Virus record (IMG/VR): IMGVR_UViG_2928510474_000005
Location: 4,425-68,424 of that record
Length of the DNA stretch: 64,000 nucleotides
Origin: a virus
Taxonomy: Duplodnaviria; Caudoviricetes
Direction: 5' to 3' (one strand)
Shown here: piece by piece, positions 31,198-64,000 of the stretch
How positions within the stretch are numbered: the stretch's first letter is position 1
How the letters are laid out: every line of letters starts with the position of its first letter
The notes under the pieces: model-generated
The model's input: only the letters and a program-made list of their open reading frames with translations
Databases searched by the model: none
What the model was told of the DNA's origin: nothing
Translations under genes and position numbers: made by a program

Positions 31198-31572
31198 ATG
31201 ACGAATTTACAGCCGGCAATGCACGATTACACGCGAGTAGGAAACTTATTGGCGTATATGGATCGATTGATTGCGCTAGAGAACGGCGACTCTTTCCGCT
31301 GTGGTCGAGAGATTGGCGAGTCTATTGCCGAGGTACGCGCAGAGTTAGATATCGGATTGGGCGTAGAGTTTAATCGCAAAGGCGGCTGGCATGTCGTACA
31401 GGCGGCGAAAGAAGAGGGCGTCGCTCCTAAGTATGTCGATACGTTTATCGTGAGATTCGACGAATCAGTCCCAGACAAAATTACCGATTTAAAGGCGCAA
31501 GGCTATCGCATCTTTTATGTGGCGAGGGGTATCGGGATCGTTGACGGATTCATTGAGGGTGCTCGAAAATGA
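31198..31572 (+). CDS. Hypothetical protein
   Basis: SD GAGGA; ATGA coupling to the rep-like gene. Confidence 0.65.
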   Translation: MTNLQPAMHDYTRVGNLLAYMDRLIALENGDSFRCGREIGESIAEVRAELDIGLGVEFNRKGGWHVVQAAKEEGVAPKYVDTFIVRFDESVPDKITDLKAQGYRIFYVARGIGIVDGFIEGARK

Positions 31573-32363
31573 CTAACGCATGGGCGATGATTCACCGCGA
31601 GACAGGCGAAATTAAAGAACTGCAATCCTCCGCGAATCGTGACGCGGGCTATCATCAGCACAAGTCGAAGGAACGTCGTGCCGGTCGTGCTATCGATTTT
31701 ACTAACGCTAACATGCGCTATTTGCACGAAGTATACGACGCGCTTACAACGGCGCAATGCGGCTATCTGATGCTGCTACAGTGTTACGTAGACTACGACG
31801 ACGGAACGATTATTAACCCGGATAAGACGCCGATGACTGCCGCAAATATGCTCGCGGCTTTGCAGTTAAAGCGGAAGCGATCGACTTACCACGATTTCAT
31901 GAGCGCGTGCATTGCTTGCGGCTTTATTATCGAGGCCGAAGACGGTAGCTTTGCGATTAACAGGCGCTATCACTTTAAAGGCGCAATGGCCGACACATAC
32001 GCAATTAAGACGTATACGGCGAAGGTTAAGCGAGTTTATAGCGAGGTCAAAGCGGCTGACATCGGTTTGATTTACCGCATGTTACCGCTAGTCCATATGT
32101 CGACGAACGCCCTTTGCGATAATCCTTTCGAGAAGAATCCGAAGAAAGTCCGCTGGCTTAATCGCAAGGAATTAGCGGAAGCAATCGGCGTTGATCCTTC
32201 GACATTGGGACGTAGGTTGCCTGGCATGAGATTCGACGGCGAATACGTAGTGGCGCGCATAAAACTCGGCAGCGAGCCGGAGCGATATACGATGAATCCT
32301 AGCGTGTTTTATCGGCAAGATAACGAGCCGGGTGGTACTTTACAGGCGATGTTTAACGTCTAA
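31569..32363 (+). CDS. Plasmid-type replication initiator-like protein (RepL-like, tandem winged HTH)
   Basis: Two wHTH-like units (STYHDFMSAC...FAINRRYHFKG; NRKELAEAIGVDPSTLGRRL...YTMNPSVFYR), immediately followed by 21-bp direct repeats. Confidence 0.65.
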   Translation: MTNAWAMIHRETGEIKELQSSANRDAGYHQHKSKERRAGRAIDFTNANMRYLHEVYDALTTAQCGYLMLLQCYVDYDDGTIINPDKTPMTAANMLAALQLKRKRSTYHDFMSACIACGFIIEAEDGSFAINRRYHFKGAMADTYAIKTYTAKVKRVYSEVKAADIGLIYRMLPLVHMSTNALCDNPFEKNPKKVRWLNRKELAEAIGVDPSTLGRRLPGMRFDGEYVVARIKLGSEPERYTMNPSVFYRQDNEPGGTLQAMFNV

Positions 32364-32383
32364 TTGAGAACAGACTGATAACG

Positions 32384-32435
32384 AGTGTGACCTTATTCGG
32401 ACATATCGGCGAAAAGTGTGACCTTATTCGGACAT
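32384..32435 (+). repeat. Iteron-like 21-bp direct repeats (candidate ori)
   Basis: AGTGTGACCTTATTCGGACAT at 32384-32404 and 32415-32435; 31-bp period, about 3 helical turns. Confidence 0.8.
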
Positions 32436-32754
32436 GCGAAAAGCGCCGTCAGCCTATACGTACCAATGGTTACAGCCGTTTTGGGCACGGAATTATCTCT
32501 TAGTCTTTGTTAACGGAGATTATCGCCTATTACAGTAATAGTAACGAGTGCCTTAAACATGCGCCTCAATGACTAAGGGCGTGTCATTTCGGCGGGGTAT
32601 TCTCTTATAAAGATATTGGCGCCAGATGATAAGTAATAGATAATCCCGACGGCGTAAGCCGGAGGTATGTCTTATCTCTCGCACTTATCTTTATTAACGA
32701 TACTAACCGGAATAGCTACTGACACGTAGCGGAATATAGGCGGAGGTGTAGACG

Positions 32755-32919
32755 ATGGAAAAAGGTATTAAGATACTATCGGACTTATTCGGAATGACTA
32801 CCGAGGAATTAACGCAAATGACACCGGACGAAATAGGCGCTAAGTGGCGTAATCACTGTAAGGCGAAACATGACGCATCTATACAGCGGATGAGAGACAT
32901 CGGAGGTGCTACGGAATGA
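32755..32919 (+). CDS. 54-aa hypothetical protein (not in ORF track)
   Basis: SD GGAGGTG; MEKGIKILSDLFG...; ATGA overlap with the next gene. Confidence 0.65.
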   Translation: MEKGIKILSDLFGMTTEELTQMTPDEIGAKWRNHCKAKHDASIQRMRDIGGATE

Positions 32920-33158
32920 AATCGTATATAGGCGAACAGAACGCTAAGCTCGTAACATTCGGCGATAAATACGCAATGGTATTCGATGATGTTCCGTCAT
33001 TAATATTCGTTAGTTACGACGGTAATGGGCGTATGGATCAGACGTTTTATAAAGGCGAGCAATTAACGAATGTTAAGGCGATAGAAATCCGTAGTGGACT
33101 CGAAGAGGTAACGGAATATATGACGACTAATTATGCAATTGATATAGACGTTAAATAG
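32916..33158 (+). CDS. Hypothetical protein
   Basis: SD GGAGGTG; 80 aa. Confidence 0.65.
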   Translation: MKSYIGEQNAKLVTFGDKYAMVFDDVPSLIFVSYDGNGRMDQTFYKGEQLTNVKAIEIRSGLEEVTEYMTTNYAIDIDVK

Positions 33159-33372
33159 GCGGTTATATAGCGGTACACCTTACGCCAGCAAATAACGCCT
33201 GATTAACGACGCTCTTATATAGAAGGAACTCGGATATAGTCGATTGACCTACGGTGAGACTGCGTTACTAGGCGAAGGGGAATCCGTCGGGCAGACGCTC
33301 CTGCCGGGGATGACCTCGCCAAACTCACGGGGCTAAGTCGATTCCAAAGCGTTTTTAAGAGTATACCTTCGC

Positions 33373-33464
33373 AGACGCACCGAATCAGCGTCTTTATAAT
33401 CGTAATATCGACTTATAAGAACGTCTATATAATAGTTGACTTTTACAGACGATTTCCGTATACT
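33373..33464. promoter_or_regulatory. Resolvase promoter and candidate res subsites
   Basis: TTGACT(33436)-17-TATACT(33459); inverted half-sites AGACGC-N9-GCGTCT 33373-93 and CGTCT(33422)...AGACG(33447). Confidence 0.55.
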
Positions 33465-33497
33465 TAACTTAACGATAAGACAACGGAGGCGTTCGAT

Positions 33498-34121
33498 ATG
33501 AAATTCGCATACATTCGCGTAAGTAGCAAGGATCAGAACGAAGCACGGCAAGTCGATACGATGGTGGCGCAAGGCGTGCCGGAAGCTAACGTATATATCG
33601 ACAAGGCAAGCGGCAAGGATACGGACCGAGCACAGTATCAGGCGTTGAAAGGTAAACTACGAGCAGGCGATATCGTCGTATTCGATAGTATAAGCCGAAT
33701 GAGCCGTAGTATGGACGATACTAAGCGCGAGTATGAATGGTACATAACGAAAGGCATAGCGCTTGAGTTCGTTAAGGAGCCGATGCTTAATACGACAGGT
33801 ACAGCGCAGGACGACGTGTTGCAGCGGGCTATAGGCGATATCATACTTACGATACTATCAGCATTCGCGGAGAAGGAGCGGGATGATATACGGGTTAGGC
33901 AAGCGGAGGGTATAGCGGCAGCCAAGAGTAGGGGCCAACGCCTAGGCCGACCAGCTATCACATGGCAGACGCTTGACACCGATACAAGACGCCTATTCAT
34001 AGCGCAATATAGCCGATGGAAAGCAGGAGAACAGACGGCTGTCGAAACGTTTAAGAACGTAGGCATGACTAAATCAACGTTCTATAAGATAGCGAAGGAG
34101 TACGAAGCGGTAGCACATTGA
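33498..34121 (+). CDS. Small serine recombinase (resolvase/invertase)
   Basis: YIRVSSKDQ, DKASGK...R, SISRMSRS, AEKER...RQAEGIAAAK..G.RLGRP; C-terminal HTH. Confidence 0.93.
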   Translation: MKFAYIRVSSKDQNEARQVDTMVAQGVPEANVYIDKASGKDTDRAQYQALKGKLRAGDIVVFDSISRMSRSMDDTKREYEWYITKGIALEFVKEPMLNTTGTAQDDVLQRAIGDIILTILSAFAEKERDDIRVRQAEGIAAAKSRGQRLGRPAITWQTLDTDTRRLFIAQYSRWKAGEQTAVETFKNVGMTKSTFYKIAKEYEAVAH

Positions 34122-34486
34122 TACAGCGTCACATAAGAACGATACGAACCGTTGTTACTACGTAGATACATTGCGTATGGCAACGGTTTTAATGCGCATA
34201 TAAATAACGATTAATAAACGTAATTTAAACGCAATTGTGTACGTTGTTCAAACAAACGTGAATGTCGAATTGTTTCCCCCAACGGCACTATTAGAAAACG
34301 CTGCAACTGCCGTACGGAATTAGCGTAGCATTTTTTGAACTCAGGGGCATAGACGGAGGCCGCGCGCAAGCATAACGATTCACACGCGTTACGCACGTCG
34401 TTTTAAGCGTCCTAGCACCCCGCAGGTGTATTCGTATGGGTAGACGCTACAACGGCTTTAAACAAGGCGCAAAGGAGGCGAATTAG

Positions 34487-36241
34487 ATGGCGTGGATAAA
34501 CGAAGAATGGATGGAGCGCGGACAGCGGGCGGAACGTATCGCAGTCTTAACGGAGGTGGTCCGCAAGCTGGCCGACGTAATTAAAGCCGGCAAGGCTACG
34601 GATTATCATATCGATATGTTTAAACGGAATCGTGCGGAACTCGTCAAGCTGAAACGCGTACATCGCGCCGAGGTCGACGTTGCCTACTTCGCCTACGAAT
34701 ATTTATCCGACATACATAACGGTGAGAACGAAGACAACATAATAATGCACGCGGACACCGGCGTAATGCACCACGATATCGACGAAGTTGCGCCAATACA
34801 TCACGAGTTCTACGACTTATGCGATCACGTAAACGATGCGGAACGAAATGCCCGGCTTGCAATCGCTGCAGCACGTGGTCATTCGAAATCCGGCGTATTC
34901 TCGAACGGCTTTCCACTGCACCAAGTAGTATTCCGCAAGCGACGGTATATCTTAGTGATCTCGGAAACCGACTCGCTATCGAAGAAGTTAATCGGTTGGG
35001 TTAATAAGCAGCTTAAATTCAACGCTAAGCTAACGGAAGACTTCGGGCCATTAATGCACGAAACGCCGAGTCGAAACGAAAAGGATAACGAAGAGGCGTT
35101 TATTACACTTAGCGGCGCATTAATAGAGGCGTCAAGTTCCGGCAAGCAATTGCGCGGGAAGCGCCACGGAGCCCATCGTCCGGATCTCGTCATCATAGAC
35201 GACCCTTCATCGCAGAATAACGAAGGAACGAAGGAGGCGCGGGAGAAGCTCGTTCACTGGTTCAACTCCGTAGTTATGCCGATTGGGTCAGCGTCAACGG
35301 CGTTCGTGCTAGTCGGAACAATGGTCAGCGCGACGGGGCTTCTAAACCATGTACTGAAACGGAAGGACTTTAAGTCGTCATTTCATGGCGCAGTAATCAG
35401 CGAGCCTACGTATCCCAAGCTATGGGACGAATATTGCGAGCTATACGCGAGGGCGGAAACGGTCGAAGAGGTTGACGAATTCTACGAAGCCAACCGGCAA
35501 ACCCTCGACGATGGCGTTGAATTGGCGTGGTCGTGGCGATGGACATATCGGGCGCTAATGCACGAAAAAGTTAATATGGGGACGCGCTCTTATAACTCGG
35601 AGTATCGAAACTTAGCGTTCAGCGAAGACGAGCAATTCTTCTTCCCGGAGAAATACGCGTACTATCATTATCTCCATGAGAACGGAGTGCCGCACGTAGT
35701 CTACAACGAATTACGCATCCCGTTCAGCGAATTAACGATAGGCGGCGCGTGGGACATCGCGATGGGCAAGAACTCGCGGTCATGCTACAACGCGGTCATT
35801 ACGCTAGGCAAGCACGAACCGACCGGCTATATCTTCGTACTCGACGAATATGCGACGAAAGAACCTGCGCATGTATACATCGATTTAATCGTTAAGAAAA
35901 TCAAGCAGTACCGACACAGCGTATTCAACGTTGAAACAATTAACGCGCAACACGAATACTACCGCCAATTGCAGGAGGCGCTACGTCTTGCGGGCGTATA
36001 TTCGACGAGGATTAACGATATAAAGTCGCACAGATCCTCGAAAGATGAGCGGATAGAGTCGTTAGAGCCGTTATGCCACAACAAAACGCTGATATTCAAC
36101 GACAAGCACACGATATTGCTCGATCAGATGGCGCAATATCCGTTCGGCGACTACGTAGATTCGATTGACGCACTGCAACTAGCGGTCGACAACATATTCA
36201 AGCCGAAAGCAAGGGTAACTACGAAACCAAGTTTCTTATAG
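34487..36241 (+). CDS. terL: Terminase large subunit
   Basis: AARGHSKS Walker A, RGKRHGAHRPDLVIIDD, VGT coupling motif, nuclease AWDIAMG and DYVDSIDA. Confidence 0.93.
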   Translation: MAWINEEWMERGQRAERIAVLTEVVRKLADVIKAGKATDYHIDMFKRNRAELVKLKRVHRAEVDVAYFAYEYLSDIHNGENEDNIIMHADTGVMHHDIDEVAPIHHEFYDLCDHVNDAERNARLAIAAARGHSKSGVFSNGFPLHQVVFRKRRYILVISETDSLSKKLIGWVNKQLKFNAKLTEDFGPLMHETPSRNEKDNEEAFITLSGALIEASSSGKQLRGKRHGAHRPDLVIIDDPSSQNNEGTKEAREKLVHWFNSVVMPIGSASTAFVLVGTMVSATGLLNHVLKRKDFKSSFHGAVISEPTYPKLWDEYCELYARAETVEEVDEFYEANRQTLDDGVELAWSWRWTYRALMHEKVNMGTRSYNSEYRNLAFSEDEQFFFPEKYAYYHYLHENGVPHVVYNELRIPFSELTIGGAWDIAMGKNSRSCYNAVITLGKHEPTGYIFVLDEYATKEPAHVYIDLIVKKIKQYRHSVFNVETINAQHEYYRQLQEALRLAGVYSTRINDIKSHRSSKDERIESLEPLCHNKTLIFNDKHTILLDQMAQYPFGDYVDSIDALQLAVDNIFKPKARVTTKPSFL

Positions 36242-36255
36242 GAGGAGGTAAACGA

Positions 36256-36690
36256 ATGAGCAACCGAAAGAAGCAATTAGAAGCGAAACTAGACGCAAGA
36301 CAACGCAAGGCAGCGTACTTACTCGTCGAAAACGAATTACGTGAAACAGGAGAACGTAAGTCATACGAAGAAATCGCAGCAGAAATCGGCGTACATTATA
36401 AAACTATATGGGAATGGCGTACGAAGAATCGCAATTTTATCGCATACAAGAACGAAATTGCAGACGACTTCCTAGCGGACAAGCGCGATCAAGTATATGC
36501 ACAACTAATGAAGCTAATCACCGCACCGCAACCGTCGGTCAAGGCGATCGACTTATTTATGCGTAGGCACGGTATGTTAACCGACCGACAAATCACGCAA
36601 ACAGAAAATGGCGACGAGAACCGATCTACTGCCGACCTCGCTGACGTATTAGAAGGGCTAGACGAATTACTGGACGGTGACGACGATTGA
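36256..36690 (+). CDS. HTH protein, probable terminase small subunit (phBC6A51-type)
   Basis: SYEEIAAEIGVHYKTIWEWRTKN; PSVKAIDLF; located between TerL and portal. Confidence 0.7.
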   Translation: MSNRKKQLEAKLDARQRKAAYLLVENELRETGERKSYEEIAAEIGVHYKTIWEWRTKNRNFIAYKNEIADDFLADKRDQVYAQLMKLITAPQPSVKAIDLFMRRHGMLTDRQITQTENGDENRSTADLADVLEGLDELLDGDDD

Positions 36691-38216
36691 CGCTATTTAA
36701 AGCGGGCGCACAATTTCCCCCGCAAGACTCAATCGAACGCCTTTCACGCTATGAACGGATGCGTAAGCTATTCGAAGGCAATCCGCTAGAAGTATACGAA
36801 CGCGCGACGGAAATCCTAAAAGATTCGCCACACGCGGCGCAACTGCGGAAGCTATATATCGCCGTTAACCTCGCAGATATACTTGCGACGAAGCCTGCGG
36901 ACTTATTGGTAGGAGAACCTCCGAATTACGAAAGCGGCGAAGACGACGCAAGCCCGGAACAAATCGCACTCAATCAGTACGTCGAAGAGAACGACTTGAA
37001 TCAGCTAATACACGAAAGCGCGACGGCGAACGGCTATCGCGGCGATGCTTGGATTAAAACGCGGTTCGGCTACGTACAGGATTACAGCGAATTGACGCGA
37101 CTTGACCTCGACTTACCTAGCGGCGTACTAATGGAGCCGGTCATCGAGCACGTCGACGCAACAACGGTATTCCCGGAGACATCGCGCGGCAACGTCAAGC
37201 GGTTCAAGGTGGTAAATATCGCAACAGTCGAATGGGTGTCGGCGCGCAAGCGAGATATTCCGTATCTCAACGTAGAGCGACATATTCCCGGCTACATCCA
37301 ATATTCGCGGTATCTACTTACGCCAAGCGATATTATAACGCAATATGGCGCAATGATTCAGGCGTTTATCATCGTGGAGCAGGTCGAAACTGGCCGAGAA
37401 CAATCGATAGTAGCGACGGGATTACCGCACATTCCCGTATTCCACGTGCCGTATAAATCGGTAGATGATTCGTGGGAAGGAATCGGCGGACTCGAAAAGA
37501 TTGAATCGAAGCTGGCGGCAATTAACGACCGACTCGTGCAAATCGACTTTATCCTGTGGAAGCACGCAGACCCTACGGCGTACGGGCCGGATTTAGAGGG
37601 AGTAAGTGGTAACGCCGTTCAGTTTGGCGGTAAATACATTCCGATCGCTAAAGACGACGTTACGCCGGGCTATATGACGTGGAACGCGCAACTTGACGCA
37701 GCATTCCGCGAACTCGACTTGCTAATATCGGCGGTCTTCATTATGTCGGAAACTCCGCAATGGTTATTCGGAACTACGATGGCAGGCGGAGGACAAGGCG
37801 GAACAGGAACGTCGCACACAGACGGTGGCGCGATTAAGTCGAGATTCATGCCTATTATTTCGAAGGTACGCCGAATTAAAACGCATTACGACCGCGCTAT
37901 TCGTGACGCGCTATATACGTGCTACTTATTCGATAAGGAATTCGGCGACTATAAAGGCGCTACGGAATACCCCGTAATCGAATGGTCCGACGGATTACCG
38001 AAAGATGATAAGATTGAAGCCGAAATCGCGGCAATTCGCACAGGCGGAAAAGCAACGCTCGATGTTCAGTCGTCAATCAAACGGATGGATGGCGTAGACG
38101 ATAGTAAGGCCAACGAAATCATACGCCGTATTGTAGAAGACGGTGATCGCGAATTAGGAACGGTAGAAGCTTCGATATTTAACTCGGAGGTGGACGCTAA
38201 TGATACCGAGGATTAA
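36687..38216 (+). CDS. Portal protein (SPP1-like)
   Basis: 509 aa after terminase; TKPADLLVGE, IEWSDGLPKDD. Confidence 0.88.
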   Translation: MTLFKAGAQFPPQDSIERLSRYERMRKLFEGNPLEVYERATEILKDSPHAAQLRKLYIAVNLADILATKPADLLVGEPPNYESGEDDASPEQIALNQYVEENDLNQLIHESATANGYRGDAWIKTRFGYVQDYSELTRLDLDLPSGVLMEPVIEHVDATTVFPETSRGNVKRFKVVNIATVEWVSARKRDIPYLNVERHIPGYIQYSRYLLTPSDIITQYGAMIQAFIIVEQVETGREQSIVATGLPHIPVFHVPYKSVDDSWEGIGGLEKIESKLAAINDRLVQIDFILWKHADPTAYGPDLEGVSGNAVQFGGKYIPIAKDDVTPGYMTWNAQLDAAFRELDLLISAVFIMSETPQWLFGTTMAGGGQGGTGTSHTDGGAIKSRFMPIISKVRRIKTHYDRAIRDALYTCYLFDKEFGDYKGATEYPVIEWSDGLPKDDKIEAEIAAIRTGGKATLDVQSSIKRMDGVDDSKANEIIRRIVEDGDRELGTVEASIFNSEVDANDTED

Positions 38217-38278
38217 ACGAATTCTGTTAATCGGATATATCGCCGGCAAATTACGATACAACGTTTGGCGCGCTGGAT

Positions 38279-39118
38279 GTGAATAAGTTCCGCGAGGCAC
38301 CTCGACCTAATTACGATTACGACGTCAAACGTCTTACCCGCGAATATGAACGGTCCTTAAAGTCGGTGCAAGCCGAACTCAACTCGCTATTTCTAACGAA
38401 TTTTGAGCGGGCGCAAATCGTAGCCGTCGAAGCTAACATTCGTGTAATACTCCGAGACTTACGCAAATACGGCGATGAATGGGCGCAAGTAGCGGTCACT
38501 AAATCAGCGCGTGACGGCGTAGCAAGTACGATCTATACGTTAGGCCTTACGGATACCTACGCCGACGCATTAAAAATAGCGAAGTTTAATGGTATGAATA
38601 AGCGACTCGTTGAAGCAGTAATCGCCGATACGCAAGCGGATTTACTCGCAGTAACGCAGAACGTCGAGCGCAAGACGCGAGCAGCGGTACGGCAAGTTAC
38701 GGCCGACGTATTGCGGGCGAAAACATCAGCCGGCATCAATGGTACCCGAACGCTTCAACAGGCTATGACTAAGGGATTACGCGACAAACTCGGCAGCTCT
38801 GCGGATACGGCGATAGTAGATGCGGCGGGGCGACGTTGGAAATTAAAGACGTACACCGAAATGCTCGCCCGAACGAAGATGCTCGAGGCGCATAAAGAGG
38901 CGACGAGGAACGAAGCGCTCGATGAGGGATCGCAATACGCGGTAGTTAGTCGGCACGGCGCTACGGATGCCTGCGCGGGTTGGGAAGGGCGGATAATCTC
39001 GCTTGTACCGGATGCGCCCGGCGATTATCCGTACATTGACGATATACCGCGAAGCCAACTATTTCATCCTTGCTGTAAACACGTAATAACTCCGGTGCGC
39101 AATCCGGAACGAGTTTAG
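38279..39118 (+). CDS. Minor capsid / head morphogenesis protein
   Basis: DAAGRRWKLKTYTEM, CAGWEG, LFHPCCKH. Confidence 0.85.
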   Translation: MNKFREAPRPNYDYDVKRLTREYERSLKSVQAELNSLFLTNFERAQIVAVEANIRVILRDLRKYGDEWAQVAVTKSARDGVASTIYTLGLTDTYADALKIAKFNGMNKRLVEAVIADTQADLLAVTQNVERKTRAAVRQVTADVLRAKTSAGINGTRTLQQAMTKGLRDKLGSSADTAIVDAAGRRWKLKTYTEMLARTKMLEAHKEATRNEALDEGSQYAVVSRHGATDACAGWEGRIISLVPDAPGDYPYIDDIPRSQLFHPCCKHVITPVRNPERV

Positions 39119-39210
39119 TAAACGCAACAGGACCGAACGTATACGTCTTTAAAACTGCTACGGCATTAACAAAATTATGTGCGACGGCACTCAAACGGCG
39201 GAGGTACAAT

Positions 39211-42413: not shown

Positions 42414-42414
42414 C

Positions 42415-56144: not shown

Positions 56145-56163
56145 ACGCAATAAATACGAAGGA

Positions 56164-56793
56164 GTGAGCGCATTGAATCAGAATCCATACTTAAAAACGG
56201 ATTGGTCGGACCACATCATCGACCCCACGCAATACGAAAAAGACGCAAATGGCGCCGTAGTCATCGACCCGCTAACCGGCAAGCCGAAGCCTTACGTTAT
56301 CCAGGAGGGTACGCGCTTCACAGCCGGTCGCGCCAATAACATCGAGGACGGCATTTACGGCGCATACGGCTGGCTCGTCCAGTATTACGAAGAAATCGCA
56401 AAGCTGCGCGTGCAACTCGAAATGGTCGGGCGCGTGCCGATTAATAACGGGACATTCTTCGATACGCTCGACAACGATACTCCGAAGCAGCTGACGCGAT
56501 TACGTAGCGCGGCGGTGGCGCAAACGGCGCTTACGGTAGGCGCGACGGAGATTACGCTTGATTCGACGCCATTTACGGTCGGGCAGTATGTTACCGTGTT
56601 TGACGATGCTAATCAGGAATCGGTTAAGGTTACGGCGATAGTAGGCGGTAAGATAACGGTTGGGGCGCTGGCGAAGGCGTATAAGAAAGGCGCGGTCGTG
56701 GCGTTATCGAACGCGGAACTAGGCTTGGCAAGACAGCGGATATTATTCGGCAATTGGGGTACTTATTCCATTGCAGTTAGCGAGGCGGTTTAA
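56164..56793 (+). CDS. Second tail fibre / adaptor subunit
   Basis: N-terminus PYLKTDWSDHI...QEGTRFTAGRANNIEDGI resembles the tailspike anchor. Confidence 0.7.
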   Translation: MSALNQNPYLKTDWSDHIIDPTQYEKDANGAVVIDPLTGKPKPYVIQEGTRFTAGRANNIEDGIYGAYGWLVQYYEEIAKLRVQLEMVGRVPINNGTFFDTLDNDTPKQLTRLRSAAVAQTALTVGATEITLDSTPFTVGQYVTVFDDANQESVKVTAIVGGKITVGALAKAYKKGAVVALSNAELGLARQRILFGNWGTYSIAVSEAV

Positions 56794-56795
56794 AG

Positions 56796-58199
56796 ATGGT
56801 TAAGTATTATTATGATAAATACAATTCAACGCCCATAATCCGTTACAATGACGACTCGACTTTTGCTGGTACAGGCCTAAAAAATATGTATTTTACTGAC
56901 ATGGCAAAAACGTACCTCTTCAATCCTATCCTAAACAGTTACAGTATTGGTTCGGATTTGTGGCAACGAAACGAATCGATAGCTAAGGGCGCTTTCGGAT
57001 ATTCTGTCGACCAACATGGGCAACTATCGAGGGGTGATGCAGAGAAAAGCGGCACTGTATCTATCACAGTAAGTGCGTATTCATCTTATAAGACACCCGT
57101 TTCTAATACGTCGTTCATAAATGGTTATAATCAAGGAACTTTAGTGCAAAGTAATATCTCAGCGGAAAACGGAACCTACCCGACAGACGGAAGACACACC
57201 GACGACTATTGGTACGTCCGCGGCGCACTTACTAACGTAGCGCCAACGATTTCACTAAGCACATCGGACAATCGCACGCTATACGAAAACGACTCGTTCG
57301 GCATTTCCGGTTCAGCAACGGATTCCGACAGCGGTAACGTAGTCAGCGTTAAGTATCAACTAAACGGCGGCACGGAGCGCGCTATCGTTTCCGGCATTAG
57401 TACTGGCGCATCAATTCCGTTTAACCGCGCGCTTACGTTTAAAGGCGGAATGCTTTTCGACGGATCAAACGCAGTCACACCGGCTTTAGTGGAAGGTACA
57501 ACGCATTCACTCCGAGTTTGGGCGGAAGACGATAAAGGCGGAAAGTCAGCGGCACAAACTCGACTGTTTACCGTAGTCGCTAACCGACCTGCGGCGCTAA
57601 CTATCGAACCTTTCGTCACTGCCGGCAACCTAATCGACTCCGACACCATGACGATTAAAGGTAGCGTAGCAGACCCGGAAGGCAATGCGGTAATAGTCCG
57701 ATACAAAATCGGCAGCGGCTCATATATCGAGATACTCAACGGAGTCGGCGGCCCGTTTTCGATACCGATTAAGTTATCTGCACTGAAAGCTGGCGCGAAT
57801 GCAGTAACGATACAGGCGACCGATAGCTACGGAGCAGTATCGAGCAAGACGTTAAACGTTGTGAAGTCGGGAAATGTACTACCGCTAAAAACGTCGGTCA
57901 CGCGATATAAAATCAACCCTCCGAATGGCTCGGCGAAAGGCGTCCTGTTATGGATCGAGCGCGAAGTCGGCGACCTAATCGTTGACGTAGAAATCTCGGC
58001 GACTATGGCTGGCGAAGCGGAATCGTTTGTGCCGATGACTAAAACGAGCACGGCGTTTGTTATCGACGGTATCGAGGAAGACGAGTTCACGCATGACGCA
58101 GTAACGCCGAAGGAAAACATCGTAATTAAACTAACGATGACACGCGCAAGCACGGCAACAAATAACGGAATTAAATTAATCTCGGGGGTGTTATCATGA
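56796..58199 (+). CDS. Tail fibre protein with Ig-like repeats
   Basis: NVAPTISL...SGSATDSDSG...LRVWAEDDKG; NRPAALT...GSVADPEGN...IQATDSYG. Confidence 0.75.
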   Translation: MVKYYYDKYNSTPIIRYNDDSTFAGTGLKNMYFTDMAKTYLFNPILNSYSIGSDLWQRNESIAKGAFGYSVDQHGQLSRGDAEKSGTVSITVSAYSSYKTPVSNTSFINGYNQGTLVQSNISAENGTYPTDGRHTDDYWYVRGALTNVAPTISLSTSDNRTLYENDSFGISGSATDSDSGNVVSVKYQLNGGTERAIVSGISTGASIPFNRALTFKGGMLFDGSNAVTPALVEGTTHSLRVWAEDDKGGKSAAQTRLFTVVANRPAALTIEPFVTAGNLIDSDTMTIKGSVADPEGNAVIVRYKIGSGSYIEILNGVGGPFSIPIKLSALKAGANAVTIQATDSYGAVSSKTLNVVKSGNVLPLKTSVTRYKINPPNGSAKGVLLWIEREVGDLIVDVEISATMAGEAESFVPMTKTSTAFVIDGIEEDEFTHDAVTPKENIVIKLTMTRASTATNNGIKLISGVLS

Positions 58200-58414
58200 C
58201 GGCTATTCTACGACGCAAGCGCCTGCCGGACGGAACCTTCGGCGAACTCGAAAAGGTGTTCGAAGGCGAAACGGCGGACGAAGTTATCGCTCGCCTTGAA
58301 AACGATAACGCGGCGCTCGTACTCGAATCTATCGCGAAGGAAATGCGCCTTGCTGACGTTGAACAAGCGCAGGCATCGCTATTACTGCAACTAATCGAAA
58401 AGGGGGCGCTATAA
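58196..58414 (+). CDS. XkdW-like fibre-associated small protein
   Basis: Position before the XkdX-like gene; LENDNAALVL. Confidence 0.6.
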   Translation: MTAILRRKRLPDGTFGELEKVFEGETADEVIARLENDNAALVLESIAKEMRLADVEQAQASLLLQLIEKGAL

Positions 58415-58554
58415 TGGACGATTTCTACTTCCGCGCAGCAAGCAATTATTACCCGCGATTTTACACGAAGGATAACGTTAAGACTTTCGTACTCGCCGGC
58501 AAGATTACGGAAGCGCAATACAAGACGATTACCGGCGATAAATACGTCGCGTAA
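58414..58554 (+). CDS. xkdX: XkdX-family protein (not in ORF track)
   Basis: YTKDNVKTFVLAGKITEAQYKTITGDKY. Confidence 0.85.
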   Translation: MDDFYFRAASNYYPRFYTKDNVKTFVLAGKITEAQYKTITGDKYVA

Positions 58555-58573
58555 CCGAAAGGAGGCACGTATT

Positions 58574-58987
58574 ATGCTACGAAATTACAACGAACACGAC
58601 TACATCGCCCGCGTGTCGCTAATATGCAACGCGCTATATCTCGTAATAACTGGCGGCTTTCTGCTGACGCTCGATAGCATCGCGTATTCAACTCCGACTT
58701 ACGACTTAATGTCGAACGTCCTATCGCTGGGCGCATTCGGCGTTCTGTTTATCGTTGCCGGCTTGCTAATCGGACTCGCAGCGTTACAGGAGGGCACGCG
58801 TCGCTCATGGTCGCTATTAATCGGCGGACTGCTCGGCGCGCTTATGCTCGGCTTATATACGATGGCATCATTCGAAGGCTCGCTGAACGATATGTTACCG
58901 CTACGATACGCAGTCGTCACGGGATTTAACGTCATTATCGCGGGCGTAGGAGGAATCGGCTTATGGATCAACAAGCGCCGTACGTAA
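58574..58987 (+). CDS. Multi-TM membrane protein (lysis cassette)
   Basis: Four hydrophobic segments; SD AAAGGAGG. Confidence 0.7.
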   Translation: MLRNYNEHDYIARVSLICNALYLVITGGFLLTLDSIAYSTPTYDLMSNVLSLGAFGVLFIVAGLLIGLAALQEGTRRSWSLLIGGLLGALMLGLYTMASFEGSLNDMLPLRYAVVTGFNVIIAGVGGIGLWINKRRT

Positions 58988-59361
58988 CGCGGCTCGAATT
59001 AATAGAATCGCAGCACCGGCTGAAAGAAGACGTATCGAAGCGCATCGACGTCGTAGACGAAAAGGTCGACACCCTTCGCGACTTAGTGTTACCGATGGGC
59101 GAATCGTTGAAACAGACGGCGGAGAACACGCGCAAGATGGCGGAATCGATGGATCGCTTTACCGAAGCGCAGCGCGGCACAAACGGTCGCATCTACGAGA
59201 AGATGAACGGACACGACGTCGAGTTCGCGCGGCTTAACGTTATTGCCGGCTCGCAAACTGAGAATAAGAAAACGAACGCAAAAGTACTCGTGGCGGTAAT
59301 TGGTGGAATCGTTACGATTATAACAGGGCTATTTGCGCTGGCTCCGTATCTATTTAACTAA
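58963..59361 (+). CDS. XhlA-like / coiled-coil protein with C-terminal TM
   Basis: Coiled coil then VLVAVIGGIVTIITGLF; precedes holin and endolysin. Confidence 0.7.
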   Translation: MDQQAPYVTRLELIESQHRLKEDVSKRIDVVDEKVDTLRDLVLPMGESLKQTAENTRKMAESMDRFTEAQRGTNGRIYEKMNGHDVEFARLNVIAGSQTENKKTNAKVLVAVIGGIVTIITGLFALAPYLFN

Positions 59362-59380
59362 ACGAAAGGTGGGCGTAATA

Positions 59381-59620
59381 ATGACGAAAGATATTGTAAT
59401 TCTAGTAACCGGCTTCTTAACGGCGGTCCTTCTATTTCTCGGAACAATCAACGTATATTTCGAGTGGTTTACGACAGACTCGATTAACGCATTCGGCGTG
59501 CTTCTTGGCGCAGGCATCGCATTAGCAGGCGCGCTGTATGCCGTCTATAAAAATACGTATGCCGTGACGAAGAAGGCGCGCAAGCAAGCGGAGGAACTCG
59601 AACGCAAGGGGCTGAAATAA
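59381..59620 (+). CDS. Holin
   Basis: Two TM segments, YAVYKNTY, basic C-tail; directly before the amidase. Confidence 0.8.
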   Translation: MTKDIVILVTGFLTAVLLFLGTINVYFEWFTTDSINAFGVLLGAGIALAGALYAVYKNTYAVTKKARKQAEELERKGLK

Positions 59621-60321
59621 TGGCGTATGAACTCGTTAATCGGCTAATACCTCCGTCGCTATATTCGTTGAAAGCGCCATACGCAATGACGCCGGAATAT
59701 ATCACGATTCACAATACGTATAACGACGCCACGGCAGCGAATGAAATCGCCTATATGACGCGCAATACGGCAGCTACGTCCTATCACGTCGCTATCGACG
59801 ACAAGCAGGCGATACAGGCGGTTCCGTTCGGGCGCAACGCTTGGCACGCAGGCGACGGGCAGGGCGCGGGCAATCGGAAGTCTATCGGCATTGAAATCTG
59901 CTACAGCAAATCCGGCGGCAAGCGCTATTACGATGCCGAGGACAATGCAGTTATTTACGTGGCGCACGTCCTTAAACAATATGGATGGGGCGTCGATAGG
60001 ATTCGCTGGCATCGCGATTGGAGCGGTAAGCTGTGCCCACACCGCATGATCGCGGAAGGTCGGCTGGACTCATTTAAAGAGCGGGTGCAAGCGGAATTAT
60101 CCGGTAAGCCCGGCAGCAATCCCGTAGCTAAATCGGAAGGAGGCGCGCGCATGTTTAAGCCTACATCGGCGACACTCAACGATGCTTATGCAAAATTCCT
60201 GCAAGACGCGATTGCCGGCGGACATCTTAACGCTAAGTGGCTCGCGGATTTCAAAGCGGGCAAACTATCGCTAGACGACGCATTGGCGTTATTTGTAATC
60301 GAATCACAACGTAAGAAATAA
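59620..60321 (+). CDS. Endolysin, N-acetylmuramoyl-L-alanine amidase (Amidase_2, XlyA/CwlA-like)
   Basis: YITIHNTYND, SYHVAID, AWHAGDG, SIGIEIC, HRDWSGKLCP. Confidence 0.95.
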   Translation: MAYELVNRLIPPSLYSLKAPYAMTPEYITIHNTYNDATAANEIAYMTRNTAATSYHVAIDDKQAIQAVPFGRNAWHAGDGQGAGNRKSIGIEICYSKSGGKRYYDAEDNAVIYVAHVLKQYGWGVDRIRWHRDWSGKLCPHRMIAEGRLDSFKERVQAELSGKPGSNPVAKSEGGARMFKPTSATLNDAYAKFLQDAIAGGHLNAKWLADFKAGKLSLDDALALFVIESQRKK

Positions 60322-60323
60322 GT

Positions 60324-60369
60324 AAAGGCGACCTATCTGCGTAATTGCGGACGGGTCGCCTTTTCTTTT
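60324..60369. terminator. Intrinsic terminator after the endolysin
   Basis: AAAGGCGACC...GGTCGCCTTTT stem. Confidence 0.85.
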
Positions 60370-60371
60370 GC

Positions 60372-60400
60372 TTTACATACGAACGCGCATTCGATATACT
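60372..60400 (+). promoter_or_regulatory. SigmaA promoter with a LexA/DinR box in the spacer
   Basis: TTTACA(60372)-17-TATACT(60395); CGAACGCGCATTCG at 60380-93, one mismatch to CGAAC-N4-GTTCG. Confidence 0.78.
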
Positions 60401-60422
60401 AATTCGAAAGGAGGGAACGAAT

Positions 60423-60764
60423 GTGCGTAATCATGATATTAAAGATCGCGGAATAATGAAGTGGCAAGGTTTGATGTTAACGGACCACGTTAAGTTAATC
60501 CGCAAGCAAGGAGAAGAAATTAACTACATACAACAGACGCTTCTCGACGATTGGGAGCTGCAGCAAATTCAGGAGGAATTAGAAATCGCATATAAACGGC
60601 AATGTGCAGCACAGGTTACCGTTTGGCGAAAAGGCGAGCATATAACGTACATTGGAAAAATATCGGAACTCAATTACCGACTTAGCTTCTTATCAGTCGA
60701 AGGACCATTCGGACACGACCGAATTCCCGTTGCAGATATAATAAAGGTACATTGCGTAGACTAA
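60423..60764 (+). CDS. yolD: YolD-like protein
   Basis: DRGIMKWQGLMLTDH...LDDWELQQI; GTG at 60423 after SD AAAGGAGG. Confidence 0.85.
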   Translation: MRNHDIKDRGIMKWQGLMLTDHVKLIRKQGEEINYIQQTLLDDWELQQIQEELEIAYKRQCAAQVTVWRKGEHITYIGKISELNYRLSFLSVEGPFGHDRIPVADIIKVHCVD

Positions 60765-60802
60765 AGGCGACCACTTCCGTAATTGGAGGCGGTCGCCTTT
60801 TT
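60763..60802. terminator. Bidirectional terminator, near-copy of 60324-60369
   Basis: AAAGGCGACC...CGTAATTG...GGTCGCCTTTTT. Confidence 0.85.
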
Positions 60803-60806
60803 GTGT

Positions 60807-61460
60807 TTACTTATCGCGCCAATTTTTAACGATGAAATCCGTCGCAGCATCGGCAACCTTCGCCGTAACCTCGCGCACCTCGTCGATCATAAGCGATAGT
60901 AGTGAAACCCACGTATACTCTTCGCCATACGGATTATCGGCGTTTACATAGCGTAGTATCTTCTTCAATTCGCGCACCCGTTCAGCGTCGAGATTAGCTT
61001 CGAGGTATTTCCGAACGAACTCGTTGATAAAGTCGCCGTCGCGCACGCTGGCGTCGAGCAGTAGAGCACACGTCCGCGATACCGTGCAGTCGAGCGCGTA
61101 GGCAATGGCGCTGATAGTATCGTATGTTTCCGACTTGAAGCGGATGGTTATGCGCGCAGTCTGGCCTGCTAAAGCGCGGCGACTTATCGGCATGCAATTC
61201 GGATTACTTCTATAAATCGTATTCATATTCGTATTCGTAAACCGGATGTCTCGCCGAAAGTATTGCGAAAGATGCCCGATAACTTTCGGCGTGTGAATAC
61301 CGTTAATGCAGACTGCTTCGGCAACGTCCTTAACGGGCGTATCCGTAATATAGGCGAGCCTGTAAATGCATTCGCGTAATTCGTGTGGCACCGTCGGCTT
61401 AATGTCGCGCTTGCGGTCGCTGCGAACCTTTCGTTGCTTACTTGCTCCCCCACTGCCCAA
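60807..61460 (-). CDS. Putative DNA-binding protein with two RHH-like units
   Basis: RDIKPTVPHELRECIYRLAYITDTPVKDVAE and ITIRFKSETYDTISAIAYALDCTVSRTC. Confidence 0.65.
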   Translation of the reverse strand: MGSGGASKQRKVRSDRKRDIKPTVPHELRECIYRLAYITDTPVKDVAEAVCINGIHTPKVIGHLSQYFRRDIRFTNTNMNTIYRSNPNCMPISRRALAGQTARITIRFKSETYDTISAIAYALDCTVSRTCALLLDASVRDGDFINEFVRKYLEANLDAERVRELKKILRYVNADNPYGEEYTWVSLLSLMIDEVREVTAKVADAATDFIVKNWRDK

Positions 61461-61560
61461 TCCCCCACCGTCCTATTCGCAGTTTATGCCGGGGACACTA
61501 GCGTGCTGTCCCTAGTCTTACTACTGTATGGTGCGGCAGGGTCGTCCTATTCCAACGTTA

Positions 61561-61659
61561 TTACTTCGTCGACTTCGGCTTCTTTTTAACGGGAATACCG
61601 TACTTCTTCGAATTCGTGCGCAATTTATCCGCGAGCTCTTTCGCCTTATCCTTTGCCAA
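61561..61659 (-). CDS. 32-aa basic peptide (not in ORF track)
   Basis: TTG start; MAKDKAKELADKLRTNSKKYGIPVKKKPKSTK; weak SD AAGTGAG. Confidence 0.45.
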   Translation of the reverse strand: MAKDKAKELADKLRTNSKKYGIPVKKKPKSTK

Positions 61660-61742
61660 TGTGCGTCTCACTTCACTTTCGTTTAATTTACGTTAGCTTG
61701 CGCATATCCTCCGAATCTTAAACGTAGGATGTATTACTAGAA

Positions 61743-61801
61743 CATTGCAGGCGCATTGCAGACGGAGCCTATACGTAGCTAAAGCATTGCCCGCGCATTG
61801 C
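61743..61801 (+). repeat. Four phased CATTGC repeats (candidate parC/operator)
   Basis: CATTGC at 61743, 61754, 61785 and 61796 (11-bp pairs, 42 bp apart), just upstream of the parM SD. Confidence 0.6.
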
Positions 61802-61819
61802 AAAATAGGAGGGATTCGG

Positions 61820-62695
61820 ATGGGTAAAGAAACGAACACGCTGGTACTCGGAATTGACGCGGGGAATTATCGCGCAAAGGTGGCGGGACCTTACGGGGTG
61901 GATTCGTATCGCACGGCTATATGCGATTGGTTCGAACGCGACATCGTAGAGGATTTCGGCAAAGGTGACGATATGGAATTCGCGCTAAAGGGTCGCAGAG
62001 GTTTTGCGGGCACACTCGCAAGTTACGAGGATCAATACGGCGGAGGCGCAATGTACGGCGAATCGAAGGCGCATGAGGATACGTTGATTCGCGTCTTGCT
62101 CGCAATCAACCGTTATCGTGCGCTCTATTGTCCGGGATTCAGCCGATTCAAGATAGTCGCAGGCCAGCCGATTATATCGCACAGCGTCGACGAGAAAACG
62201 AAACTAGCGGACTTACTTCGCGGCGAGCACGTAATAACTGTCAACGGCGTTCGGCAACGGATTACTATAGAAGAAGTCGGCATCGCAGCGGAAGGTACCG
62301 GCGCATTTATGAGTCAGCCGCAAGTTGGTGTGGTTCGTATTATCGACGTAGGTAGCGGTACAGTAAATTGCGCCACGGTCGCAGATAAGCGCCACATCAA
62401 TAACGCAAGCAAGACGTTTAACTACGGAGTTGAAACGTCTGGTGGACGCGATAACATCGACGGAATCGCACGCGGAATAATTCGGTCGACTACGCAGCTT
62501 AAATGGAAACGAACGGATAAAGTTTTCGTATGTGGTGGAGTTACCGAGGAATTGCTGCCGTTGCTCGCCGAACATTATCCGTCTGCGCAAGCGATCATTC
62601 CGCAGCTAAATGCGCTCGACGGTGTCCATCAGCATCTACCGACATTCGCCAACGCAATCGGCTTTTATGAAATCGCAAGGCTGACGTATGGATGA
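61820..62695 (+). CDS. parM: ParM/StbA-family actin-like ATPase
   Basis: Phosphate-1 VLGIDAGN, connect AEGTGA, phosphate-2 IIDVGSGTVN, VFVCGG, FANAIGF; ATG at 61820. Confidence 0.88.
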   Translation: MGKETNTLVLGIDAGNYRAKVAGPYGVDSYRTAICDWFERDIVEDFGKGDDMEFALKGRRGFAGTLASYEDQYGGGAMYGESKAHEDTLIRVLLAINRYRALYCPGFSRFKIVAGQPIISHSVDEKTKLADLLRGEHVITVNGVRQRITIEEVGIAAEGTGAFMSQPQVGVVRIIDVGSGTVNCATVADKRHINNASKTFNYGVETSGGRDNIDGIARGIIRSTTQLKWKRTDKVFVCGGVTEELLPLLAEHYPSAQAIIPQLNALDGVHQHLPTFANAIGFYEIARLTYG

Positions 62696-62922
62696 AAGAC
62701 CGGACAAACAAAACGATATCCTTCGCCCATTACGACGCTTATGAACTCGACTTGATGACGTATGCGCTCGACCCGGCGCGGGGGAAGTTTGGCCCGTATA
62801 TTAAACGACTAATAGAACGCGACCGTGACGGAGGGCAGGCGCAGGTAGTGGCGGACATACCGAAGCCGGCGGCGGGCGGGGGTACTAAAGCGGATAAAGC
62901 GTCGGTCGCCGGGTTTCTGTGA
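62692..62922 (+). CDS. ParR-like adaptor (RHH N-terminus, flexible C-tail)
   Basis: Coupled downstream of parM; strand-helix-helix pattern, Gly/Ala/Pro linker, terminal KASVAGFL. Confidence 0.62.
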   Translation: MKDRTNKTISFAHYDAYELDLMTYALDPARGKFGPYIKRLIERDRDGGQAQVVADIPKPAAGGGTKADKASVAGFL

Positions 62923-62965
62923 CGACAAAAACGGTCAATCCCGAAGGAAAGACCGCTGCAGCTTA

Positions 62966-64000
62966 TTATTGAAACTTAACGCTACCTTTCCGTTTCTGAC
63001 GCGAATTAATTAACGCTTCAACCGGCGACGCCTTGTCGTGTATCTCCTTAATATCGGCGCTGGCGAACTGGACGTAGCGCTGCGTCATCGATATGTCCGT
63101 ATGTCCGAGTATCTTCATTAGCGCGAATGGGTCGCCACCATTACGAAGAAACTTAACAGCGAAATAGTGTCGGAATGTGTGCGGACTTACGCGGGCCTTG
63201 ATCGGCGATACTGCTCGATTTGCGTATTTTTTAAGCATCTTCGCGAATGTATCTCCGTAGTAACGCTCGCCATACTGTGTTAAAAATATAAACTCGGCGT
63301 CATCCTCGTCGCCAACGCCTGTGTAATCGAACAGACTACGTAGTAAATCGGCAGTCGAGCGACTCATCGGAACAATGCGAGCGCGGCGATTCTTCGTTAT
63401 TTCCGCACGTAAGGATATTTGACGGTAAATTAAGTCGACGTCACCACGCACCAACGCGGACATTTCGCCGATGCGCATTCCTGTGTCCGTCATGAGTATC
63501 ATCATTACGTAATCGCGCAGTCCTGTATAGGTTCTCCGACGAGGGGACGCAAGCAACGTTTCGATTTCTTCGTCCGTAAATATCTCGAAAGTTTCGATAT
63601 CTTCCGTCTGTAGCCCGACATCTTGCGCCGGATTAATGCCGATGTGCTTCTTCGCGATTGCCCAATTGTAAAATACGCGCAGGACTCGGATTGCGTTATT
63701 AGCTGTCCTCGCTGACACGCCAACAACCTCGGATACATTCGTCGGGTGATCGTCCCATTTCGTTTTGTCGAACGTCAAGTAACGCACATACTCGCGCACA
63801 CAGTCGCCCTCATTTCCGTTGTATCCCTGCGTTGCGCAATATTTCGCAAAGTGGGAAAGTGTCTGCCTATACGTCCGTATCGTATCGGGACTCCGTTTCT
63901 GCAACATCTTATCATCGATGAATAGTTCGACCGTAGCGTCATAGTTGAAATTGCGCCCTAACTCCGACGAATTTCGATTCTTAAATTCAAACTTCCGCAT
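62966..64000 (-). CDS. int: Tyrosine recombinase / phage integrase
   Basis: SAM-like N-domain; DTGMRIGE, ITKNRRAR, HTFRH, LGHTDISMTQRYV. Confidence 0.95.
   Translation of the reverse strand: MRKFEFKNRNSSELGRNFNYDATVELFIDDKMLQKRSPDTIRTYRQTLSHFAKYCATQGYNGNEGDCVREYVRYLTFDKTKWDDHPTNVSEVVGVSARTANNAIRVLRVFYNWAIAKKHIGINPAQDVGLQTEDIETFEIFTDEEIETLLASPRRRTYTGLRDYVMMILMTDTGMRIGEMSALVRGDVDLIYRQISLRAEITKNRRARIVPMSRSTADLLRSLFDYTGVGDEDDAEFIFLTQYGERYYGDTFAKMLKKYANRAVSPIKARVSPHTFRHYFAVKFLRNGGDPFALMKILGHTDISMTQRYVQFASADIKEIHDKASPVEALINSRQKRKGSVKFQ

Follow-up and report, generated by a model that had tools for sequence, protein, structure and literature searches.

A Sporosarcina prophage integrated at the 3' end of spo0A carries a conserved actin-like cassette and other plasmid-like genes

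Does a phage that encodes both an integrase and an apparently complete plasmid-maintenance kit live in the chromosome, as a plasmid, or as both? The question is raised by a 64,000-nucleotide (nt) stretch of viral DNA (hereinafter the window), which comprises bases 4425–68424 of the 68,424-bp IMG/VR record IMGVR_UViG_2928510474_000005. An initial annotation, made from the letters alone, noticed a tyrosine recombinase, ParM and ParR-like genes with phased repeats, a Rep gene with iterons, and a resolvase with a res site. It proposed that the phage lysogenizes either integrated or as an actively partitioned plasmid, that it uses ParMR to segregate excised circles, or that the tyrosine recombinase is a dimer resolvase and the element never integrates. 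Here we report that the phage is integrated at the 3' end of spo0A, a host gene. We consider it reasonably probable that its plasmid-like genes serve the free circular phase of an integrative myovirus related to phages Lietuvens and PVJ1, as AlpAC does in prophage CGP3.

The DNA around the prophage was examined in its host contig. An exact-protein look-up placed both end genes of the record on one 371,784-bp NCBI contig, at 267,918–336,341. The record opens precisely on a gene's ATG and closes precisely on the reverse-strand ATG with which the integrase gene begins, and no terminal repeat is present in its 68,424 bp, which is typical of a prophage excised along gene boundaries. Megablast of both record ends against the phage collection gave no match. 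Looking at the contig beyond the window, the check that the initial annotation had suggested, revealed host genes on both sides and attachment (att) repeats. Specifically, the left flank contains xseA, xseB, ispA, dxs, ahrC, recN, spoIVB, and spo0A, and the right flank contains a FapA-family gene, GDPD, DUF2627, the sigma-54 activator gene bkdR, and ptb-bcd-buk-type genes. The spo0A gene of Bacillus subtilis has this neighbourhood as well.

The element is flanked by a 188-bp exact direct repeat, consisting of the last 186 nt of spo0A plus 2 nt. The attL copy (L005:9214-9401) is the end of an intact spo0A, 600–787 bp to the left of the record, and the attR copy (L004:9697-9884) lies 117–304 bp beyond the integrase ATG, which is also the window end. 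The empty site was found in four other Sporosarcina records, in which the gene for the same Spo0A protein is followed by a 1.25-kb stretch free of open reading frames (ORFs) and then by the FapA-family gene. The attR side differs from the empty sites by 4–9 mismatches per 1500 nt in three of the four records; the fourth (L100), from a more diverged strain, shows 329 mismatches in a fixed-offset comparison. On the attL side, similarity to the empty sites collapses right after the spo0A stop codon. The att repeats, together with the empty sites in sister strains, establish that the insertion is real and precisely bounded.

As read from these junctions, the phage supplies a faithful replacement of the spo0A 3' end. 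It also replaces the native spo0A terminator region. The intervening stretch without called genes, from spo0A to the FapA-family gene (L097:5793-7043 in an empty site), is ~99.5% conserved between strains. The 188-bp attachment core is far longer than the 42-bp core reported for PVJ1. The stretch from the integrase start to the att core contains two short motifs of the type GCAATGAA(A/T)TGCC, and the other arm contains one in inverted orientation (L004:9885-10000, L005:9402-9650); they are possible arm-type integrase sites.

The integrase gene (62966–64000, minus strand) encodes a 344-aa protein of Xer-like sequence, and its ATG is the last triplet of the record. The protein matches Pfam Phage_integrase (PF00589, 2.5e-33) and SAM-like N-domains as well as phrog_1 integrase (1.4e-52); its matches to NCBIfam XerA/XerD-like models, at 1e-42 to 1e-44, fall under the curated cut-offs. 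In the translation, the motifs TGMRIGE, HTFRH, LGHTD, and QRY supply the catalytic R, HxxR, H, and Y, in agreement with the initial annotation of a tyrosine recombinase at this position. Because the phage sits at spo0A between att repeats, with empty sites in other strains, this recombinase is a working integrase, and the suggestion that it is a Xer-like dimer resolvase of an element that never integrates is refuted. The chromosomally integrated state is the sole state in which this phage has been observed, in its one record. Among public sequencing runs, none contained over 12% of the words of the stretch.

The use of the spo0A 3' end as a phage attachment site is the freshest detail of the case. 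No second spo0A-integrating relative emerged from an integrase scan of genome contigs, which gave only Xer-like proteins at most 30% identical. A limited search of the literature turned up no attachment site of this kind; the elements that it yielded were all in other sporulation genes. No excisionase was identified for this phage.

The host can be assigned to Sporosarcina psychrophila from the sequences of RecN and Spo0A; the Spo0A beside the prophage is identical to a multispecies Sporosarcina protein. By its gene content, the element is a ~69-kb temperate myovirus prophage of the Lietuvens/PVJ1 kind, most of which is covered by the window. It encodes TerL, portal, capsid, sheath, tube, baseplate, holin, and amidase. 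In protein-by-protein tblastn, it is colinear, for the greater part of the genome, with Sporosarcina phage Lietuvens through the loader, helicase, primase, polymerase, ribonucleotide reductase, terminase, and portal modules and onward through the capsid, sheath, tube, tape measure, and baseplate modules. The record starts with a gene for an HTH_36 protein, 52% identical to Lietuvens ORF36, with PHROG matches to replication-initiation and O-like proteins. Between attL and this gene, outside the record, lies a 71-aa XRE-type gene on the minus strand. It is convergent to spo0A and ~250 bp downstream of it. Both att sites and this small gene are located just outside the record and hence were beyond the view of the initial annotation. 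The predicted order on the circular genome is ALP cassette (described below), int (leftward), attP, xre (leftward), and HTH_36 gene (rightward).

The plasmid-like genes nearest to the integrase form a cassette around an actin-like protein (ALP). The ALP gene (61820–62695, plus strand) encodes a 291-aa ATPase of the ParM/AlfA type, matching ALP_N (4.3e-10), phrog_691 'partition protein' (2.4e-33), and, distantly, AlfA in the PDB (4.2e-5). Its true start is at 61820, preceded by an AGGAGG site; a sigma-70 promoter scan, which did not perform above shuffles, made no call at the start of the operon. Across 30 homologues, no variation is seen in the phosphate-binding motifs D13-G15-N16 and D176-G178-S179-G180-T181. 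The earlier designation as ParM is thus borne out by the ALP_N match and the invariant nucleotide-binding motifs.

Overlapping the ALP stop by 4 nt is a gene for a putative ParR-like adaptor (62692–62922, plus strand; 76 aa; phrog_8966). The adaptor is composed of a segment resembling a ribbon-helix-helix (RHH) fold at the N-terminus (a strand-helix-helix pattern), a variable linker, and an invariant C-terminal G/A-F-L tail; S10, F11, K38, R39, F75, and L76 are invariant in an alignment of five homologues. The RHH assignment comes from this sequence pattern and from weak protein Atlas leads to RHH families. In the claim of a ParR-like protein, the conserved ORF stands, and the RHH fold is a candidate one.

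Two genes diverge from the ALP operon. One (61561–61659, minus strand) encodes a 32-aa lysine-rich peptide that is called in the NCBI record and is 86% identical to Lietuvens ORF33. The other (60807–61460, minus strand) encodes a 217-aa protein for which the predicted structure (AF2, pLDDT 79.6) is that of a tandem RHH protein with a helical C-terminal domain. It is 70% identical to Lietuvens ORF32, 49% identical to its homologue on the plasmid pSP10-266k, and 33% identical to PVJ1_41. The best Foldseek rows are ~105–120-residue chains of the F-plasmid relaxosome entries 9f0x–9f12 (probability 1.00, TM by target 0.62–0.75, E 0.015–0.06). We take these small chains to be TraY, a tandem-RHH protein. 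The 217-aa protein is likely a regulator or a second DNA binder.

The cassette is conserved and under purifying selection. Compared with the closest relative, the ALP has a ratio of nonsynonymous to synonymous substitution rates (dN/dS) of 0.11, the tandem-RHH protein one of 0.14, and the adaptor one of 0.10. Across Lietuvens, PVJ1, and pSP10-266k, blastp identities range from 33 to 86%. Specifically, Lietuvens keeps all four genes (70, 86, 56, and 43% identity for tandem-RHH protein, 32-aa peptide, ALP, and adaptor), and PVJ1 and pSP10-266k each keep three of the four, with the PVJ1 ALP 50% identical. The closest ALP homologue, at 93% identity, is in L102, a contig that stops just past the adaptor gene.

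Directly upstream of the ALP gene lies a candidate parC-like operator or centromere (61743–61802), made of four phased CATTGC(A/C) heptamers that start at 61743, 61754, 61785, and 61796. They form two units 42 bp apart, each consisting of two heptamers 11 bp apart, and stop 8 nt short of the ribosome-binding site. Apart from these two copies, the window contains no further paired unit, and 0.19 would be expected, which confirms the phased repeats first noticed near 61743. Relatives have the two-unit layout at the same place, each with its own motif: Lietuvens has TCATAC, PVJ1 an 18-bp palindrome, and others GTATTAC/GTAATAC. The units are clearly 42 bp apart in L102, PVJ1, pSP10-266k, and L089, and are spaced less regularly in Lietuvens, L088, and L091. 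Repeats that are specific to each lineage within a layout that is kept look like a co-evolving operator or centromere.

The occurrence of the cassette bears directly on what it can tell about lifestyle. On Sporosarcina contigs of 2.0, 3.7, and 2.8 Mb, YolD, the divergent protein, the ALP, and the small ORF form the last prophage module before host genes. Another Sporosarcina strain has it flanked by an integrase and a cI-like repressor, beside host sdhAB-racE-rph. Four other chromosomally integrated Sporosarcina prophages carry it, and at least five independent integrated prophages, including this one, have it at different sites. Experiments on PVJ1 itself showed that it integrates at the deoD 3' end through a 42-bp core, and mitomycin C induces it (PMC8779076). 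In Sporosarcina sp. FA9 (L089:9197-9487), which is one of the three large-contig cases, the prophage with the ALP cassette ends beside a 96-aa comGA-type (T2SSE) fragment followed by comGB-GF, which suggests that it is inserted within the competence gene comGA.

The cassette also occurs without an integrase. In a metagenomic siphovirus contig (L105), which has no integrase, it is followed directly by an HTH_36 gene, and in Lietuvens it is followed directly by ORF36 (HTH_36); in the present phage, int, attP, and xre are interposed. On pSP10-266k, a 266-kb S. psychrophila plasmid, the cassette stands in a non-phage context. These gene neighbourhoods mark the cassette as mobile in Sporosarcina and Psychrobacillus, where phages that integrate, phages that lack an integrase, and a megaplasmid all carry it. 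Because it is found in integrated prophages, integrase-less phages, and a plasmid alike, plasmid lysogeny cannot be inferred from it. Likewise, the literature on Bacillus cereus plasmid prophages holds that ALP genes are not diagnostic of plasmid lysogeny, citing CGP3 (PMC8026635).

The second plasmid-like locus is located some distance away. A gene at 31569–32363 (plus strand) encodes a 264-aa protein (phrog_9501, function unknown) that is predicted to be a tandem winged-helix DNA-binding protein with a RepE/pi/RepL-like fold. The AF2 model (pLDDT 80.8) contains two winged-helix domains over residues 40–254. The protein has no family match in Pfam or NCBIfam, and in a PDB profile search with the winged-helix family only an AsnC helix-turn-helix appeared, at E 0.22. 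Foldseek matched the model to 8ac8_A 'Rep with DUE ssDNA' with probability 0.97 and to RepE54 with 0.6 (E ~0.01–0.1), and VIA-align matched it to the pi initiator 2nra_C with Z 6.4 over 176 residues; its whole-length structural matches are iteron-binding initiators only, with modest scores. Weak matches to the RepL family of Pfam (PF05732) were found in 12 of 41 relatives, the best at 7.8e-6, and its protein Atlas clusters are labelled 'Replication protein'/RepL.

Starting 21 nt past the stop codon of this gene are two exact 21-nt direct repeats (AGTGTGACCTTATTCGGACAT; 32384–32404 and 32415–32435), 31 bp apart from start to start, with 0 expected. The relative L106 encodes a protein with 70% identity and has, at the same position and with the same 31-bp spacing, two exact 23-nt repeats that share the core; ~110 nt of conserved non-coding DNA come after them. 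The retention of the repeat pair together with the protein in L106 argues that the element is functional. No such repeats lie downstream of the phi18-2 and B. paralicheniformis p1 homologues, and neither a DnaA box nor an AT-rich unwinding tract was found beside the pair. The reading of this region as Rep with iterons (31569–32435) is upheld in part: the two exact repeats are present, the winged-helix fold is predicted, and a match to any Pfam or NCBIfam family is lacking.

The winged-helix gene is the last early gene ahead of the packaging region, and in virion-derived genomes such as Tripp, Halcyone, and phi18-2 it always stands just before the genome terminus and terminase. Its relatives are found in chromosomes, on many stand-alone 55–66-kb contigs, and on three circular 63–68-kb PLSDB 'plasmids'. 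In our reading, the protein would be a site-specific DNA binder that may act as an initiator, as a regulator of late functions, or as both. B. paralicheniformis p1 (NZ_CP126497.1; L107, 18400-65049), a 65-kb circular 'plasmid', is a complete siphovirus. Its genes include an integrase, the arbitrium receptor AimR, a polymerase of its own, and the tandem winged-helix gene, and it has no par genes. Since it has an integrase and AimR without par genes, p1 may be phage DNA that was assembled as a circle and filed as a plasmid.

Shortly downstream, an intact gene (33498–34121, plus strand) encodes a small serine recombinase (207 aa) that belongs to the resolvase/invertase class and has the N-terminal catalytic motif YIRVSSKDQ. 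It matches Pfam Resolvase (PF00239, 1.6e-26 over residues 3–147) and phrog_125 (1.8e-47), in line with its earlier identification as a resolvase. Its phage relatives are at most 40% identical and not syntenic, and no convincing long inverted repeats that would delimit an invertible segment were found. Upstream of the gene, an imperfect 30-bp dyad, TCTTTATAATCG-TAATAT-CGACTTATAAGA (33391–33420), was read from the sequence as a candidate crossover or operator site; for the proposed res site (33373–33497), several scattered TATATAG-type motifs, related to the dyad, can also be seen. The recombinase gene occupies the slot between the genome terminus or terminal repeat and TerL. In Lietuvens and in the B. 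mycoides plasmid pl62, the same slot holds a ~182-aa tyrosine recombinase on the opposite strand (L094:590-1138, L006:6907-7455), which looks like a non-homologous replacement. By analogy with Cre-lox in P1, the serine recombinase probably cyclizes or monomerizes phage DNA.

An integrase and a ParMRC-like cassette thus coexist in one phage, as first proposed, and the plasmid-like genes are real, conserved, and probably active. For what purpose would an integrated phage keep them? In CGP3, the adaptor binds the upstream region of the alp operon, and the excised prophage depends on both proteins to replicate efficiently (PMC4446434). A cassette that is under purifying selection in demonstrably integrating phages most likely serves an extrachromosomal phase, and of the proposals in the initial annotation, ParMR acting on excised or free circles is the best fit to the comparative evidence. 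The Xer-like integrase recombined attP, with its 188 bp of spo0A 3' end, with the host gene, so that spo0A was rebuilt intact at attL and a 3' fragment remained at attR. The cassette, built like a type II ParMRC system, would work through an adaptor that binds the heptamers and couples circles of phage DNA to ALP filaments. It would thereby position or segregate circular phage DNA after infection or induction, or prevent the loss of unintegrated circles at division. The winged-helix protein and its repeat pair would be a site-specific DNA binder and its target beside the packaging region and what is probably the genome terminus. The cassette does not imply that the phage also has a stable plasmid lysogeny of its own.

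Several observations weigh against this account and toward a phage that both integrates and persists as a plasmid. A genuine 266-kb plasmid carries the cassette, as do integrase-less phages in which the HTH_36 Rep-like gene is its direct neighbour, and thus it can provide partition to replicons that are autonomous. What a plasmid replicon would need is here, in the form of a RepE/pi-like protein whose iteron-like repeats are conserved, plus a resolvase, and relatives of that protein are on many stand-alone contigs and three circular 'plasmids'. According to this alternative, the phage normally integrates at spo0A and can also persist as a low-copy circle, replicated by the winged-helix protein and its repeats, partitioned by the ALP cassette, and monomerized by the serine recombinase, perhaps in cells whose attB is absent or occupied or before integration takes place. 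Every functional class of the plasmid kit is present and apparently intact, the repeat pair is conserved together with its protein, and integrated P1-like elements with rep and par genes are documented (PMC10879196). Nevertheless, integrated is the only state observed, and the cassette is routine in integrated prophages, including PVJ1, so that stable plasmid lysogeny, as put forward in the initial annotation, finds no support. Its replicative half fares no better: the repeats number only two, have neither DnaA boxes nor an AT-rich element next to them, and are 28 kb from the par cassette; they are missing by the phi18-2 and p1 homologues, the protein is under threshold for every Rep family model, and the p1 'plasmid' may be circularly assembled phage DNA. 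We therefore regard a facultative phage-plasmid as rather unlikely. Its bimodal form, in which the phage integrates at spo0A if the site is available and is otherwise a low-copy circle, with the choice or retention perhaps tied to sporulation through the phage's position at spo0A, is likewise doubtful. Integrated elements that keep rep and par are already documented (PMC10879196), so the phage itself is of a known kind, with an unusual attachment site.

Two further explanations were considered. The genes could be roleless leftovers from a phage-plasmid ancestor that became integrative by gaining int-attP-xre. Conversion of a phage-plasmid into an integrative prophage is documented (PMC10879196), and int, attP, and the XRE gene lie here exactly between the homologues of two genes, cassette and HTH_36, that abut in Lietuvens and L105. 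Decay is not what the cassette displays, though: dN/dS is 0.10–0.14 in three of its genes, all catalytic motifs are intact, the operator architecture is conserved, and at least five independent integrated prophages with different integration sites retain it, which leaves this history very unlikely. Alternatively, the cassette could confer lysogenic conversion or exclusion, for example through partition incompatibility with related phages or plasmids that share its centromere. Its moron-like slot, between the lysis genes and the att site, beside YolD and with its own divergent regulator, would suit such a function, as would the homologous cassette on a plasmid of the same host species. This reading is pure conjecture, and the centromere-like repeats differ between lineages, which would limit cross-interference; we give it little credence. 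The free circular phase remains our preferred explanation for the plasmid-like genes as a group.

These results have a practical side. ParM-type partition genes together with a Xer-like recombinase are commonly taken as the signature of Bacillus-type plasmid prophages, and here they are found in a demonstrably integrated phage, which pipelines that call phage-plasmids from such genes would misfile. From the comparison also emerges a conserved actin-like cassette of four genes, whose compact operator has a 2+2 repeat layout; it offers a tractable way to study the functions of phage actins.

Three observations concern other parts of the genome. Past the HTH_36 Rep-like gene and its neighbour, upstream of the window (L001, genome bases 1537–2765), a 1.2-kb ORF-poor tract has a GC content that falls to 0.38–0.39 and a 17-nt palindrome (2156–2204) nested within a 24-nt inverted repeat; it is a candidate origin for the helicase-loader replisome of the phage. 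A full-length match to the skipping-rope RNA (Rfam RF02924; 55.3 bits against a gathering threshold of 36.7) is located at 28952–29040 of the window on the plus strand, within an ORF-free gap that the initial annotation had flagged separately as an ornate non-coding RNA. Spo0A boxes (TGTCGAA) are not enriched, with 17 found against 11.3 ± 3.4 expected, and the idea of such an enrichment was dropped.

The cassette shares with the type II partition systems R1 ParMRC, AlfA/AlfB (pLS32), and Alp7A/Alp7R (pLS20) the gene order of repeats, ALP, and small adaptor, as well as an 11-bp phasing in two blocks at the start of the operon, and its ATPase is of AlfA-like size (291 aa). The parC of R1 consists of ten 11-bp iterons; in contrast, there are four heptamers here, on an integrative phage, and the partition role is predicted from the genes. 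The tandem winged-helix protein resembles the iteron initiators RepE, pi, RepA, and Firmicute RepL in its predicted two-winged-helix fold and in adjacent direct repeats that co-vary with the protein. It differs from them in its modest similarity (Z 6.4, Foldseek E ~0.01, no Pfam match), in having two repeats without DnaA boxes or an AT-rich element, and in belonging to a gene family that is always just before phage packaging genes.

Among phages, PVJ1 of Psychrobacillus and Lietuvens are the nearest in organization, with a homologous ALP cassette after the lysis genes, as here. The 64.5-kb genome of Lietuvens, a myovirus, has terminal repeats of 437 bp and lacks a large integrase; a small tyrosine recombinase takes the place that the serine recombinase has in this phage, and Lietuvens does not share the tandem winged-helix gene, the Mom-like gene, or the serine recombinase. 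PVJ1, a temperate myovirus like this phage, also uses a host gene's 3' end for integration and has int beside the cassette (PMC8779076), but its target is deoD with a 42-bp core instead of spo0A with 188 bp. The TerL is 57–59% identical to the TerL of 60–65-kb plasmids of the B. cereus group. Among the plasmid prophages of that group, IEBH, vB_BtS_B83, and pBtic235-like elements persist as plasmids, with Xer-like enzymes that are believed to resolve dimers (PMC8026635), whereas the Xer-like enzyme studied here integrated the phage. Integrated P1-like elements (PMC10879196) likewise combine integration with replication-initiator-like and partition genes; they belong to an unrelated phage lineage and another host phylum, and in the present case integrase and att are the phage's own, with clean boundaries.

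The closest counterpart in layout and lifestyle is AlpC/AlpA of the Corynebacterium glutamicum prophage CGP3 (PMC4446434, PMC5539076), likewise an integrated prophage with an actin-like ATPase and a co-transcribed DNA-binding adaptor. The likeness is confined to these two aspects. Among solved structures, the ALP described here is nearest, distantly, to AlfA, and the adaptor looks RHH-like, with a C-terminal FL tail. In addition, the Sporosarcina cassette has the divergent tandem-RHH protein and the 32-aa peptide.

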